The notes under the pieces are model-generated. The model made no database searches. It had not been told where the DNA came from and saw only the letters and a list, made by a program, of their open reading frames with translations. Shown here piece by piece: positions 37,400 to 64,000 of a stretch of DNA of 64,000 nt (position 1 is the stretch's first letter; every line of letters starts with the position of its first letter). This stretch comes from Escherichia phage vB_EcoM_ESCO32. The stretch is from the sequence record OM386658.1; one strand, written 5' to 3'. Made by a program: the position numbers and the translations under genes.

Positions 37400-38226
37400 C
37401 AAAATTTTTAATCTTTGGTTCAAAAGGTCAATTAGGACAATCTTTGGCAAAAGTTGCACCAGAAGATGTTATTTTGATTGAAGCAAGTGATATAGACATT
37501 ACCAACTTTAAAGATGTTATGAATAGTCTTGTACAGCACGTGCCTGATGTTGTTGTGAATTGTGCGGCTTACACGGCAGTAGATAAAGCTGAAGAAGATG
37601 TTAACACCTGTATAAATGTTAATGCATACGGTGCAACAAACATTGCCAAAGCATGTAATGATTTACTGATACAGTTTGTACATATTTCAACAGACTATGT
37701 TTTTGATGGGCATGTTGCTGGCACAGAAGATAGTAAAACAAACCCCTTGAACACCTACGGTTACAGTAAACAATTAGGTGAAACTTTAGTACAAACAGTT
37801 TGTCCTACAGCACTTACTATCAGAACAGCTTCTGTTTATAGTGAATTTGGACATAACTTTTTGAAAACTATGTTGGAACGCTACAACGGTGGTCAAAAAG
37901 AATTTAATGTAGTATGTGATCATTTGTCGTGTCCTACTTATGCACCTGATCTTGCAGAAACAATTTTTAAACTTGTAAAAGATGGTGTAAATAGTAAAAT
38001 TGTACACTATGCAGGTGCAGATTATATTTCTTGGTATGATTTTGCACGAAAGATATTTCTTGTTATAGATTTATCTGTTACAGTTAATCCTGTATCTGCT
38101 TCAACCTATAATTCCAAAGCAGTCAGACCAGCAACATCTTATTTAAAAACAGATCCTACTTTAAATCCGCGAAGTGTTGATAGCGGTATTGTAAGAACTT
38201 TAACTATACTTTTAAACAAGGAGTGA
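37396..38226 (+). CDS. rmlD: dTDP-4-dehydrorhamnose reductase
   Basis: 276 aa SDR; GSKGQLG N-terminus, YGYSK catalytic motif; completes RmlB-A-C-D set. Confidence 0.75.
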   Translation: MTKFLIFGSKGQLGQSLAKVAPEDVILIEASDIDITNFKDVMNSLVQHVPDVVVNCAAYTAVDKAEEDVNTCINVNAYGATNIAKACNDLLIQFVHISTDYVFDGHVAGTEDSKTNPLNTYGYSKQLGETLVQTVCPTALTIRTASVYSEFGHNFLKTMLERYNGGQKEFNVVCDHLSCPTYAPDLAETIFKLVKDGVNSKIVHYAGADYISWYDFARKIFLVIDLSVTVNPVSASTYNSKAVRPATSYLKTDPTLNPRSVDSGIVRTLTILLNKE

Positions 38227-38228
38227 AA

Positions 38229-38489
38229 ATGAATTTTATTATCTACGGTAAACCAAATTGTCCTTTCTGCACTAACGCTAAGATTCTACTAGAACAGCGT
38301 GAACAGGATTTTAAATACCTTACCTTAGATGAAGACTATTCTTTAGATCAGATTCAGAATCTGGTTTTAGAGAAAACAGGTGTTCTACCACGCACATTTC
38401 CTCAGATTTTTGTGGAAGATGGTGAACAGCTAACCCACGTAGGAGGTTTTTCTGAACTACGTGAATTCATGGCTCAGATTGCGGAGTAA
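38229..38489 (+). CDS. glutaredoxin / NrdH-like redoxin
   Basis: CPFC active-site motif near N-terminus; 87 aa. Confidence 0.75.
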   Translation: MNFIIYGKPNCPFCTNAKILLEQREQDFKYLTLDEDYSLDQIQNLVLEKTGVLPRTFPQIFVEDGEQLTHVGGFSELREFMAQIAE

Positions 38490-51545: not shown

Positions 51546-51833
51546 TTATTTGCTTTCACGAGCAAAATAATAATTTTCATATTCATTACGTGTAACGATT
51601 TCTGGATGATCAGGTTCACCGTAACTAAGTTTAACTTCAGGATACACTTTGGTGTTGAACAGACACGTAACACCTCTCATATAATATCCTGTAGGACTTA
51701 AAACAACATCATCTTCACTTACACTTGAGAATTTTATTTCACCATTAGTATCTTTGACGACAATAAGAGCATGTTCAGGCCAATCAAGATTTTCTTCTTT
51801 TAGTTTTTCATAAACTTCTTGTACTAGTTCCAT
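51546..51833 (-). CDS. hypothetical protein
   Basis: ORF track. Confidence 0.35.
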   Translation of the reverse strand: MELVQEVYEKLKEENLDWPEHALIVVKDTNGEIKFSSVSEDDVVLSPTGYYMRGVTCLFNTKVYPEVKLSYGEPDHPEIVTRNEYENYYFARESK

Positions 51834-58169: not shown

Positions 58170-58856
58170 TTATTTAACGTGTTTTAGCAATTCAATGTTG
58201 GCAGAATAGTTTTCACCACAATTAGTAACGCTCAACAGTGACCATTTACAAGAGAATACACCTTTTAGATGATCTGGAACACACATCAGCGGAACATAAA
58301 CTGTTTCTGAATCTTCTGTTTGCTCTGTTTTGTTAACATTGCAACAAAATGGCAATACATCATCATGAATCATTTTACATTCACTCAAATTATCTAACAT
58401 ATGTGAAACTTGTTCTGAAGTTTCAAACATTTGTGCTTCACAAGCCAGCGCACCAACCACTTGATAAGCCTCTCCACACAAATCTTCTAGTTCTAAAATA
58501 CGTTCAGACATAGCTTCGATGATTGCTGATCGTGCTTCCACCTTAGTTTCTGCTTCTTTAATTTTCTTCTCAAGTTCTGCAATGTACTTCAGTAGCGCAC
58601 TAACAACATCTTGAGTATTTTCTTGGTCATCTTGGGAAATTTTTACCAAAGAAGAAGCTGCTTTGCAACGTACTTTAGGTTCTACATAACCAAAAGTCAT
58701 ATTTTCCGAAGAAGATTGTTGTGAAAACCAGTGTTTGTTCGAAGAAAACACAGGTTCATCTTCAAACCAGAACACATCTCCAGTGATATCACGAGCCATG
58801 AAATTTGCATTGTCTGGAACTTCGTAACGATGCCCTTCAAACATAATCTCTTTCAT
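58170..58856 (-). CDS. hypothetical protein with central coiled coil
   Basis: ORF track. Confidence 0.35.
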   Translation of the reverse strand: MKEIMFEGHRYEVPDNANFMARDITGDVFWFEDEPVFSSNKHWFSQQSSSENMTFGYVEPKVRCKAASSLVKISQDDQENTQDVVSALLKYIAELEKKIKEAETKVEARSAIIEAMSERILELEDLCGEAYQVVGALACEAQMFETSEQVSHMLDNLSECKMIHDDVLPFCCNVNKTEQTEDSETVYVPLMCVPDHLKGVFSCKWSLLSVTNCGENYSANIELLKHVK

Positions 58857-59440
58857 TACACATCCTCCATTTGGAACATCTCTTTGTGGTTAGAATAGAT
58901 CTGTTTGAAAATCTTGTCAAGGCGTTCATATGATTCTTTATGCTCTTGTTTCCATCCATGATTTCGGATTTTATCTGCCAAATCATAAGCCTCGCATAAA
59001 ACTTTGGCAAAGTTGGTATTATCTATAGCACAAGCCTCAAAACCTTGAACTAAACCCTCTACATCATACCATGTATAGTCAGAGTCACTAGGAGTCTTTC
59101 CTGCATCGGCTAAACGTTGCCTCACCCATTCGATACGTTTTTCATTCAAATGGCACTTACCTTCTCTACACTCTTGTTCTAATTCTTCTTTAGATTCATT
59201 GAATGGGTGAAGGACAGGTAGCTCTGCTTTTTGCAATTGCTCCAGATATTCTCCTACAATGCGCATAGCTTCACTGTGTGTACACTTTCTACCTGTGTGC
59301 CAGTAACGGAAGATACTTTCTGTTAAACAGATGTTTTTACTAAACATCGCATTATCTTTAACATTCGATCTATTAACCCAGTCTATATAATATACATAAA
59401 ACTGCAATAATTCATAACTGCTTGGTATAATTTTACTCAT
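58856..59440 (-). CDS. Cys-rich paralogous-family protein (member A, extended)
   Basis: Shares LLQFY..W, LHPFN, RIEWVRQRL motif pattern with 60064, 62356 and 62714 ORFs. Confidence 0.4.
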   Translation of the reverse strand: MSKIIPSSYELLQFYVYYIDWVNRSNVKDNAMFSKNICLTESIFRYWHTGRKCTHSEAMRIVGEYLEQLQKAELPVLHPFNESKEELEQECREGKCHLNEKRIEWVRQRLADAGKTPSDSDYTWYDVEGLVQGFEACAIDNTNFAKVLCEAYDLADKIRNHGWKQEHKESYERLDKIFKQIYSNHKEMFQMEDV

Positions 59441-59852: not shown

Positions 59853-60071
59853 TTACTCATACATTTGATAAGATACATAACGATTGCAATCAAGTGCGAG
59901 AAACTTTTCAGCATCTCTTTGATGCTTGAACACAATACACTGTTCTTTTTTAGCTGCACTTTCACGAGCTTCTCTTGCCATATACTCACCTAAACGAATG
60001 ATACTAGAGAATAACACGTATGCAAGAATAAGACAAATAGTGATTGCACAGAAAGTTTTAAACTTAACCAT
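59853..60071 (-). CDS. small membrane-anchored protein, paralog of 55135..55359
   Basis: N-terminal TM FKTFCAITICLILAYVLF; conserved C-I-x-x-K-H...AE-x-FL...C motif. Confidence 0.4.
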   Translation of the reverse strand: MVKFKTFCAITICLILAYVLFSSIIRLGEYMAREARESAAKKEQCIVFKHQRDAEKFLALDCNRYVSYQMYE

Positions 60072-60432
60072 TGTATTCCTCCATATCACGAATACGATCA
60101 ATCACCCATTGTACACGTTCTTTATTAAGGTGTGCAATGCCTAACTCTGTTTCCGTAAAGTAATGTGAGAAATCTGTATTAAATGGGTGTAAATGGTTCA
60201 AACCCGCTTTCTTAAACTGTTCCTTCATTTCCTCTCGTACAGAGGACTGGAGGTTTGCTACATTCTCAACATCTTTTATCCAAGCAATATTGTACAAGAA
60301 GTCTACAAGACACGTGCAAAGACCATAATGCTTTTTGCTAAAGTTTGTATCTTCTTGTTCTAACCACCACTCATAAAATTGTAGCAAATAGGGGCTGCTT
60401 TTCATGTTACACACTTTATTATTTTCTTGCAT
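60064..60432 (-). CDS. Cys-rich paralogous-family protein (member B)
   Basis: LLQFYEWW, GLCTCLVDFL, HLHPFN, RVQWVIDRI. Confidence 0.45.
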   Translation of the reverse strand: MQENNKVCNMKSSPYLLQFYEWWLEQEDTNFSKKHYGLCTCLVDFLYNIAWIKDVENVANLQSSVREEMKEQFKKAGLNHLHPFNTDFSHYFTETELGIAHLNKERVQWVIDRIRDMEEYNG

Positions 60433-62355: not shown

Positions 62356-62724
62356 CTATTCAATGCAAGCATTATTTGCATCTTCGATTCTGTCTTTCAC
62401 CCATTGAAGACGTAACGTGTTGGTATGACACGCCAAGTCTATACACTCTGAAAGGTAATCCATGCAATCTGCATTGAACGGAAGATTGTAGTCCAGTCCT
62501 GCACATGTAAATTGTTTCCTCATTTCGTATTTCAAACTATCCAACAAACGATCACGCCATCTTTTATCTTCTTCTCTAGTTACCTCACCAACAAAATCAT
62601 CTACATAATCTACCAGACAACCACATAAGCCACTCGTTGTGCGATTCATTGCAGGATGGTTGGCAATCCATGCTTTATAGAATCGTATTAAAGCTGCACT
62701 ACTCAACGGAATATTACTTTTCAT
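62356..62724 (-). CDS. Cys-rich paralogous-family protein (member C)
   Basis: LIRFYKAW, GLCGCLVDYV, FTCAGLDYNLPFNAD, HTNTLRLQWVKDRI. Confidence 0.45.
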   Translation of the reverse strand: MKSNIPLSSAALIRFYKAWIANHPAMNRTTSGLCGCLVDYVDDFVGEVTREEDKRWRDRLLDSLKYEMRKQFTCAGLDYNLPFNADCMDYLSECIDLACHTNTLRLQWVKDRIEDANNACIE

Positions 62725-63148
62725 TATTACCCCCTAACACCAAACATGAATCGGCAATACGATCTTTCACCCACTGCAATCTCCCTGGGTTAGTATGGCA
62801 AGAATGTTTCTTACCTTCATCTTCATAACACAGAAGGTCATCATTAAAGGGCAGGAAGGAGGATAGCCCAGCACACGTGAATTGCAATTTCATCTCTTCT
62901 AGCGTTTTACTACGAACCATCTTGAAATGTTCTATATCTTCTTGCGTAGGTTTTTTCTTTGACATAGTGGTTGCCAGATAATCCATAAGGCAAATACACA
63001 AACCAACATTCTCACGATGCATTGAGGAATGATCTTCCATCCATGCTTTGTAAAATTCTAACAGCAGTGGACTGCTAAGAGGAACACACATATCAGACTC
63101 CTTTATAAATTTACGTTTCATGCCACACATCATACAGCATCTTTTCAT
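62714..63148 (-). CDS. Cys-rich paralogous-family protein (member D)
   Basis: LLEFYKAW, GLCICLMDYL, FTCAGLSSFLPFNDD, HTNPGRLQWVKDRI; closest to member C. Confidence 0.45.
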   Translation of the reverse strand: MKRCCMMCGMKRKFIKESDMCVPLSSPLLLEFYKAWMEDHSSMHRENVGLCICLMDYLATTMSKKKPTQEDIEHFKMVRSKTLEEMKLQFTCAGLSSFLPFNDDLLCYEDEGKKHSCHTNPGRLQWVKDRIADSCLVLGGNNEK

Positions 63149-63464
63149 CTATTACAAGAACAGCAACATAGAAACATCATTAATGGAGGGCTTAGTATAG
63201 GAATTAGTATAGGTATTCCCTATCAATTATTCTATATATACCTATTATTTTTAACACACCCCTTTGTACATAATATAGACAAATAAATATCTATGCCACA
63301 AAAATTTTCCGGTATACCCGATTTATTTCGACACACCCTTTTTCATAAGCGTAAAGTCAATAATATCAATAACTTGCCGCAAAATACTGCTCGCTTGCGA
63401 GAGGTGCTTAACGCGATTTTCAGCGCCCCCCGATTTCTGCCGACCGTCCCCCTCAAATATCAAT

Positions 63465-63483
63465 GAGAATAATTATCATTTGC
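63465..63483 (+). promoter_or_regulatory. Fur-box-like palindrome (GAGAATAATTATCATTTGC)
   Basis: 14 of 19 positions match the Fur consensus GATAATGATAATCATTATC; part of a ~20-bp direct repeat. Confidence 0.3.
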
Positions 63484-63658
63484 ATTATCATTCAATGACT
63501 TATAAGACTTTTGATTATTTTCTGAGCAAGAAAGGTACTACTCACAACAAAACAGATAAATTCTAAGTAAATCAATGGCTTGGCAAGTCTAAACATCTAT
63601 ATACACCTTGCCAAATGAAATGATCTGGCGTGAAATAGTGCCACCCGTGGAAGATAAC

Positions 63659-63678
63659 TGATAATGATTATCATTTGC
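63659..63678 (+). promoter_or_regulatory. Fur-box-like palindrome (GATAATGATTATCATTTGC)
   Basis: 16 of 19 positions match the Fur consensus; second copy of the repeat. Confidence 0.35.
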
Positions 63679-64000
63679 ATACTTTCTGTACTATAAAACC
63701 GACTAAAAATCAAGATAATTCTGATTTATTGCGCTTTTAAGAAAGTAGGCTCAACAAATAGGGGAATACATTGCAACAAATGAGGTATGTTATAGGGGCA
63801 ATAGTATGAAAAATCATCTATTCAGATAAAATAATTTTGCGCAATAGTGGCAATATTTTTCTTGACAAGAAAGATTTCTTTGTGTTCACATAGCGCCCCC
63901 TGGAGGGTGGCGCATTATGATCATCAGTGTCATTATTCATTTCAGTGTTATTATTCACCATGTTTATTATATGCAGCTTATATTATAGCCAATGTTCTAA

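Follow-up and report, generated by a model that had tools for sequence, protein, structure and literature searches.

The window (the whole 64,000-nt stretch of DNA that was analysed) ends within a non-coding gap of about 1.7 kb, which we call gap A and which corresponds to L001 7094-8841 in Escherichia phage Paula. Gap A is also the point at which the record of phage phi92 opens, between gp248 and gp001. More than 100 phage genomes from the subfamily Stephanstirmvirinae have matches to the final 2 kb of the window, and the best of these are Justusliebigvirus (phi92-like) phages such as Paula, with about 96% identity. Four records at about 94-96% identity to this group of E. coli phages (MG065645, MG065689, MG065639, and MG065656) are labelled "Campylobacter phage" and UNVERIFIED, and that host label is doubtful.

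The genes that flank the region of interest, on either side, are all on the minus strand. Four early genes (58856-59440, 60064-60432, 62356-62724, and 62714-63148, minus strand) are paralogues from PHROG family 2510 within the block that adjoins the terminal repeat described below, and two of the four are missing from phi92 at this position. When we compared ten adjacent early proteins to Pfam and PHROGs, we obtained no functional assignment and detected no DNA-binding domain. In phi92, gp005 is annotated as a "predicted transcription regulator." None of the adjacent early genes is related to iron. Upstream of the first early gene is a 12-bp tandem duplication (two copies of TTAGTATAGGAA at 63192-63213), adjoined by the inverted repeat TAGGGAATACCTA. 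An earlier reading of this DNA, from the sequence only, had pointed out direct repeats of TAGTATAGG; these are real, and they are part of the duplication, which is separate from the Fur-like element that is our main subject. Phages arall and phi92 have a single copy of the 12-bp unit, so the copy number varies between strains.

The phi92 record (FR775895.2) annotates a 343-bp direct terminal repeat (DTR) at each end, and positions 1-556 of phi92 align to 63751-63199 of the window with 97.8% identity. Given those annotated ends and this alignment, the DTR of our phage should lie at 63409-63751, with position 1 of phi92 at 63751 and its right end at 63409. The sequence-only reading had used "terminal" merely for the end of the window. 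The region nevertheless coincides with the terminus of the phage genome, and the suggestion of a terminal-repeat element has held up: the region is homologous to the phi92 DTR and its flank, and its conserved boundaries coincide with the ends of sequence records. At the right terminus, the motif GTGCT/TAACGCGA (63404-63416, with the cut at 63408/63409 by comparison with phi92) is invariant or nearly so among 12 phages, and the records of Mt1B1_P17, BI-EHEC, and Schickermooser end at this boundary. At the left terminus, to which phi92 position 1 maps, the motif is AGTAGGCT/CAACAAA (63744-63758, with the cut at 63751/63752). The boundary itself reads AGGCT/CAACA, GCTCAACA is conserved, and 3A1_SA_NWU, WPEC2, WPEC4, WPEC6, and Ro121lw are among the records that end here. 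We searched the homologous region of Phapecoctavirus ukendt against all phage records, and at least eight Phapecoctavirus records end on or beside the base that is homologous to the left boundary. The record ends that fall exactly on one or the other predicted boundary come from many records and from different laboratories.

Both boundaries, which are conserved in each relative that we compared and have homologues in 12 phages, share GCT/YAAC (GTTR^AGC in the orientation of phi92), a motif that is invariant across three clades and is probably the recognition site of a terminase or a nicking activity. For Justusliebigvirus, these boundaries give a DTR length of 343 bp; for Phapecoctavirus the length is 329-331 bp, and for the Klebsiella-infecting clade it is 344 bp. 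Our comparison provides probable cut sites for this genome and, with them, the probable extent of its terminal repeat. The record of Klebsiella phage FKP3 (L023 1-820) contains most of the DTR twice, with 500 bp between the copies and an odd join; the repeat probably misled the assembly, and we left this record out of the evidence.

Within the homology-assigned DTR are two copies of a shorter repeat, AATAATTATCATTTGCAT at 63468-63485 and AATGATTATCATTTGCAT at 63663-63680. They had been noticed before as a pair of ~20-bp repeats about 190 bp apart; both copies are indeed present, and they are 195 bp apart from start to start. They had also been likened to Fur boxes, with 16 and 14 of 19 positions matching. 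Both sites are Fur-like, as was claimed, but those counts were slightly too low. Read on the minus strand, copy 2 (GCAAATGATAATCATTATC) agrees with the 19-bp Fur consensus GATAATGATAATCATTATC at 17 of 19 positions, and copy 1 (GCAAATGATAATTATTCTC) agrees at 15 of 19. If we allow up to three mismatches, then this locus is the only one in the entire 64-kb window that matches the consensus. The expected number of such matches is 0.04, and none of 100 dinucleotide shuffles contained two or more.

Each copy lies within an array of three overlapping 19-mers. In array 1 (63459-63489), these begin at 63459, 63465, and 63471 and score 11.8, 20.5, and 14.7 bits with the matrix described below; the best of them is 63465-63483 (GAGAATAATTATCATTTGC). 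In array 2 (63654-63684), they begin at 63654, 63660, and 63666 and score 11.0, 24.0, and 10.9 bits, and the best is 63660-63678 (GATAATGATTATCATTTGC). The secondary matches in both arrays overlap the main site with an offset of exactly 6 bp, which is how Fur arrays are built: footprinted Fur operators are reported to be clusters of overlapping sites that are offset by 6 bp (PMC2189734). The sites also have the sequence of a Fur operator, that is, a 19-bp inverted repeat near the consensus, or equivalently at least three NATWAT hexamers.

To derive a Fur matrix, we took 12 promoter regions of E. coli K-12 MG1655 that are regulated by Fur (fepA-fes, fepD-entS, fepB-entC, fhuA, fur, fiu, fhuE, tonB, cirA, exbB, fecI, and fecA), picked the top site from each, and iterated these sites to a symmetric matrix. 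Among the training sites, agreement with the consensus ranges from 11 to 16 of 19 positions, and the scores run from 10.9 to 19.7 bits. The phage sites at 63660 (24.0 bits) and 63465 (20.5 bits) both outscore every one of the 12 training sites, on a matrix that is not fully independent of the textbook consensus because the consensus was used to seed it. They are also the two highest-scoring sites in the 64-kb window, while no site in 100.9 kb of control E. coli DNA scores above 13.5 bits. We shuffled 63149-64000 while preserving dinucleotides, and the observed maximum was not reached in any of 2,000 shuffles; two sites of at least 12 bits were reached in 3.6% of them. The comparison with shuffled controls that the sequence-only reading had proposed therefore favours the sites, which beat composition-matched random sequence. 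The matrix also finds isolated sites, without arrays at 6-bp offsets, at 38225-38243 (19.7 bits) and 51566-51584 (17.7 bits), which are at a gene junction and in the interior of a predicted coding sequence. These are probably chance matches in AT-rich DNA.

Is the motif really that of Fur? We selected 39 phage sites by their 13-bp core alone, so that the three outer bases on each side were not used. At the outermost position of these sites, G is found at 56%, as compared to 18% in the background (p=7e-14), and at the next position A is found at 50% as compared to 32%; these are the preferences of E. coli Fur, and part of this signal is supplied by the 6-bp overlap of neighbouring sites, which is itself a trait of Fur arrays. 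The frequency matrices of the phage sites and the E. coli sites are correlated with r=0.93 overall and with r=0.82 at the outer positions alone. A search of the phage genome with E. coli Fur as the query (tblastn) did not find a homologue of Fur.

The sites are also conserved. Our alignments covered gap A in ten phages and the repeat region in seven. Most of gap A aligns poorly between genera, and the conserved islands are both termini, the block around array 1 (CAAATATCAATGAGAATAATTATCATT...ATTCAATGACTTA), an IHF-like core, array 2, and a few others. For box 1 (array 1), the best 19-mer begins 54-56 bp from the terminus, within the DTR, in each of the 12 phages that we compared, from three clades, with scores of 13.3-22.7 bits. 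Array 2 (box 2) is 71-73 bp from the left terminus in both Justusliebigvirus, where it scores 20.8-24.0 bits, and Phapecoctavirus, where it scores 14.6-15.9 bits. These fixed positions persist even though the sequence between boxes 1 and 2 has strongly diverged. Array 2 is absent from the Klebsiella clade, which retains the motifs at both termini.

Along the minus strand, the order of elements in the DTR is the left cut, a short inverted repeat, array 2, the predicted promoter P1, the IHF-like core, array 1, and the right cut. Then comes a unique leader of about 260-320 bp, depending on which start codon is chosen for the first early gene. P1 is a predicted sigma-70-like promoter (TTGGCA-17-TAGACT, 63586-63614, minus strand) that would fire toward the early genes, starting near 63579. 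The consensus scan gave its equivalent in Paula (L001 7617-7589), phi92 has TTGACA as its -35 hexamer, and both this element and the spacing can be recognized across three clades. Our scan of the gap for promoters and terminators found 11 promoter-like sites, as compared to 11.2 expected from shuffles; since they are no commoner than in shuffled sequence, all of our promoter assignments are predictions that carry little weight. A putative rightward promoter, TTATCA-18-TATAAA (63669-63703, plus strand), is weak and was read by eye from the sequence; array 2 covers its -35 element. A further candidate for a -35 element, TTGCAT from the 3' part of the 18-bp repeat, was rejected: its spacing to any -10 element is wrong, and it is not conserved in Phapecoctavirus, where the Fur-like core alone is kept. 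The IHF-like core AATCAATGGCTTG (63570-63582, plus strand) lies between the two arrays, overlaps the predicted start of P1, and matches WATCAANNNNTTR. This is a short pattern, and it is held in all clades, including in phiWec190 despite different bases.

Relative to the predicted start of P1, the arrays lie at about -75 to -100 (array 2, upstream) and +90 to +120 (array 1, downstream), and both are clear of the -10 and -35 hexamers. With its hexamers left free, the predicted P1 would not have the geometry of classical repression by Fur. By their sequence, both repeats are Fur operators as these are usually defined; by their position, as judged from predicted promoters, they would not be, and box 2 overlaps only the weak rightward candidate.

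Our preferred explanation, about which we are evenly divided, is that the repeats would be genuine operator arrays for the host's Fur that give iron-dependent control of early transcription. The parts of this explanation are not equally secure. The identification of the two sites as Fur-like is strongly supported at the level of sequence, by their scores, their 6-bp phasing, their outer bases, and their conservation in three clades. We are quite confident that Fur-Fe2+ would bind these sites in an iron-replete enterobacterial cell, because binding to near-consensus sites in arrays is what the established biochemistry of Fur leads us to expect. That the sites are maintained because of Fur seems to us somewhat probable. 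Their conservation across the subfamily suggests that the phage may tie its early control region to the iron status of the host. Fur binding, the promoter that is affected, and the direction of the effect are what we infer.

In an iron-replete host, Fur-Fe2+ dimers would sit on array 2, upstream of P1, and on array 1, downstream of it, with the IHF-like bend site between the occupied arrays. Their occupancy would alter the output of the promoters in the repeat, so that transcription from the end of the genome would depend on iron. This could happen in several ways. First, Fur might repress P1 through looping or as a roadblock. Second, it might occlude the -35 element of the putative rightward promoter. 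Third, Fur might counter the silencing of AT-rich DNA by H-NS. This is how Fur acts at E. coli ftnA, where the Fur sites are upstream of the promoter, rather than over it, in AT-rich DNA. Counter-silencing would make biological sense because full early expression would occur only when the host has iron. The geometry (sites on either side of P1, an IHF-like bend, and 34% G+C) fits either a repression loop or roadblock or else counter-silencing. On the other hand, it is not obvious to us how a virulent phage would benefit from repressing its early genes in iron-replete cells.

The motif recurs elsewhere. In close relatives, gap A continues past the end of the window and contains two more copies of the perfect palindrome AATGATTATCATT, which we call boxes 3 and 4 (L001 8521 and 8579; 19.6 and 15.0 bits). 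Phapecoctavirus, the Klebsiella phages, and the Vequintavirinae phage Av-05 have an equivalent of box 4. A small plus-strand open reading frame after box 4 has a good Shine-Dalgarno sequence in Paula, and we discarded it as a candidate gene: the peptide is not conserved between genera. When we scanned the rest of the genome of a close relative, A145, we found four sites with 16-21 bits, and a weaker fifth site, in what we call cluster B; the spacings in A145 are 23, 29, and 24 bp. Cluster B lies in a non-coding gap of about 1.4 kb between gp223 and gp225 of phi92 (gap B), about 11 kb past the end of the window. It has three to five boxes (L027 2960-3075 in phi92, L028 5695-5806 in ukendt, and L029 2686-2778 in KP13-26), and in ukendt and KP13-26 the number of boxes and their spacing vary while the motif is kept. 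Three AT-rich direct repeats of about 65-75 bp (TATTTAAAGTTTTT ... AAAATGAAAAGTTCAA) precede cluster B, and a GC-rich and highly conserved non-coding block of about 250 nt, which terminates in a hairpin, follows it. This region could be an origin or a Fur-controlled non-coding RNA. Across a composite genome of 146 kb, there are 13 sites with at least 15 bits, and 8 of the 13 are within the two gaps, which together amount to 2.2% of its length. Because the motif recurs at boxes 3 and 4 and in the second regulatory gap, Fur would act at two control hubs.

These gaps contain other conserved elements. Just past position 64000 of the window begins a multi-hairpin element (L001 7985-8165), in which a 15-bp long-range stem surrounds three hairpins, with another hairpin adjacent. 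Nine of its base pairs show compensatory changes among five phages, and it has no match in Rfam; we take it for a structured RNA or else a DNA cruciform. A segment of about 110 bp with two small hairpins (L001 8717-8826) follows shortly after the gp248 terminator, and its conservation extends to the Vequintavirinae (Av-05) and to Klebsiella phage FBKp34. When we compared both non-coding gaps to Rfam, we obtained sub-threshold noise matches only (to snoRNA and miRNA families), and a search of the non-coding gaps for tRNAs found none.

Cluster B also invites a rival explanation. The motif might belong to a phage-encoded dimeric DNA-binding protein (an early repressor or activator, or a replication initiator) whose specificity resembles the Fur box or has converged on it. 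Cluster B would then be an iteron array like that of ori-lambda, with the sites in the repeat as auxiliary operators. The four or five palindromes of cluster B, at the spacings given above and beside the AT-rich repeats, do resemble ori-lambda, which has regularly spaced palindromes beside AT-rich repeats; with its regular spacing of about 24 bp, cluster B resembles an iteron-type origin no less than an operator, which is a point against our preferred reading. The motif is restricted to the two non-coding hubs, and the uncharacterised early neighbours could include a regulator, as the annotation of gp005 would have it. Only cluster B, outside the window, approaches the iteron pattern: the window itself does not have the features of an iteron origin (at least three regularly spaced tandem sites, an AT-rich region, and an initiator gene), as it contains just two sites, 195 bp apart, and we identified no initiator. 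Also, another protein need not reproduce the match at all 19 positions together with the 6-bp phasing that is typical of Fur, and the ten neighbouring proteins have no detected DNA-binding domain. Besides, host Fur is abundant and should bind such near-consensus sites in any case.

The Klebsiella phages provide another argument, as what replaces box 2 in them points to host factors. Three of the four phages in this clade (KP13-26, KP2025, and FKP3) have CACTGTATAAGTGAACAGT at the position of box 2, which is a good match to the LexA pattern CTGT-N8-ACAG. This LexA-like box covers the position that is homologous to the -35 element of the rightward promoter. In KP13-26, LexA-like boxes are present in both gaps, in the repeat (L008 1875-1890) and in gap B (L029 2550-2565); the box in the repeat is also present in L021 and L023. 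The LexA-like boxes of the Klebsiella-infecting relatives read CTGTATAAGTGAACAG and CTGTATCTTACTACAG. Their presence in both gaps suggests that these hubs collect operators of the host's global regulators. Given all this, we consider a phage-encoded protein unlikely, and we return to host Fur as the preferred reading.

Even if Fur binds, it might not be there to control transcription. The replicated arrays could act as a sponge that titrates the host's Fur, and on this view it would not matter that the sites are located in the repeat. Derepression of the Fur regulon (iron uptake, nrdHIEF, and suf) would supply iron to iron-dependent phage enzymes such as ribonucleotide reductase. Multicopy Fur boxes do derepress Fur-regulated reporters in the FURTA assay. 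A cell has about 5,000-10,000 copies of Fur, and the roughly 9-11 strong arrays per phage genome, multiplied by the genome's copy number, would be of the same order as this pool. Related phages are reported to encode ribonucleotide reductase (PMC10698182). However, a sponge could work at any distance from the termini and with any flanking sequence, yet box 1 is positionally invariant, and titration would act only late, after replication. We think it quite improbable that the sites are a sponge, and operators for Fur remain our preferred reading.

The sites might instead be part of a signal for the processing or packaging of the genome's ends, where they would guide the terminase, or whatever machinery duplicates the repeat, into place. 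The arrays are 56 and 73 bp inside the two conserved GCT/YAAC cut motifs, which is roughly symmetric, and the conserved IHF-like core between them recalls the R sites and I1 in the cosB of lambda. CosB, with its IHF site and its terminase R sites, likewise has repeated elements around an IHF-like core near the cut. Unlike in cosB or ori-lambda, the motif here is that of Fur rather than that of a known terminase or initiator, and the two sites in the repeat are far apart rather than in tandem. We know of no terminase that recognizes a sequence like the Fur box. Furthermore, boxes 3 and 4 and cluster B are remote from any terminus, and the Klebsiella clade lacks box 2 yet has kept the motifs at both termini. 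So we give a packaging signal little credence.

Finally, it had been cautioned that AT-richness makes a coincidental match more likely, and the region is indeed just 34% G+C, and isolated sites with 17.2-19.7 bits do turn up within predicted coding sequences or at their edges (e.g., at 38225 and 51566), but the shuffles, the genome-wide census with its clustering, the 6-bp phasing, and the conservation of position across clades counter this, and we consider it extremely improbable that the sites are a chance product of AT-rich non-coding DNA.

How do these sites compare with Fur operators that are already known? The operators of E. coli (fepA-fes, fepB-entC, fepD-entS, fhuA, cirA, fiu, and fecI) have the same 19-bp inverted repeat, the same arrays of hexamers with 6-bp overlaps, and the same clustering of sites, and the phage sites score as high as these iron-uptake operators or higher. 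They differ in that the phage sites lie in the DTR and in non-coding hubs of a virulent phage rather than upstream of an iron gene, and the arrays are clear of the best-predicted early promoter. As for counter-silencing at ftnA and titration in FURTA, these are analogies of mechanism only; we know of no phage for which either counter-silencing by Fur or titration of Fur has been shown.

Phages can carry Fur boxes and other operators of host repressors. In the Shiga toxin phages, stx1 is controlled through a phage-borne Fur box. Another case is sitABCD on lambdoid coliphages (PMC6969025). These Fur boxes of temperate phages likewise tie phage DNA to the host's iron regulon. However, they belong to accessory genes of prophages, for virulence and transport, whereas the sites we describe belong to strictly lytic myoviruses, where they occupy the core control and terminal region and are conserved across the subfamily. 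The LexA (SOS) boxes in phage regulatory regions are the same kind of co-option of an operator for a global repressor of the host, and they differ in the regulator and in the physiological signal. LexA boxes are common in temperate phages, and the known phage cases are mostly temperate. Our full-text literature searches did not find any report of Fur operators in the terminal repeats or core control regions of virulent phages, and our searches for Fur boxes in lytic phages and for transcriptomes from this subfamily found nothing relevant beyond the sit operon of temperate phages. Fur boxes and the use of host repressors by phages are already well known, while conserved, near-consensus arrays in the DTR and control hubs of strictly lytic phages have no precedent among the papers that our searches turned up.

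More broadly, we tentatively propose that the Stephanstirmvirinae, with traces in the Vequintavirinae, may have hard-wired the host's Fur (and, in the Klebsiella phages, LexA) into the ends of their genomes and into a second hub. This might gate lytic development, or the adjacent non-coding RNA or origin, by iron, or it might titrate Fur so as to reprogramme the iron metabolism of the host. We see this as a possibility that is worth pursuing rather than as the probable outcome. If Fur binds to these sites and acts there, then the availability of iron, which is an important variable both in the gut and in infected tissue, would directly modulate infection by this group of phages. That would bear on how reliable such phages are in iron-limited host environments, and these phages are widely isolated for therapy against E. 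coli and Klebsiella. In that case, fur mutants, chelators, and mutations in the boxes would also provide a simple handle on early regulation in a family for which the programme of transcription is still almost entirely unmapped.
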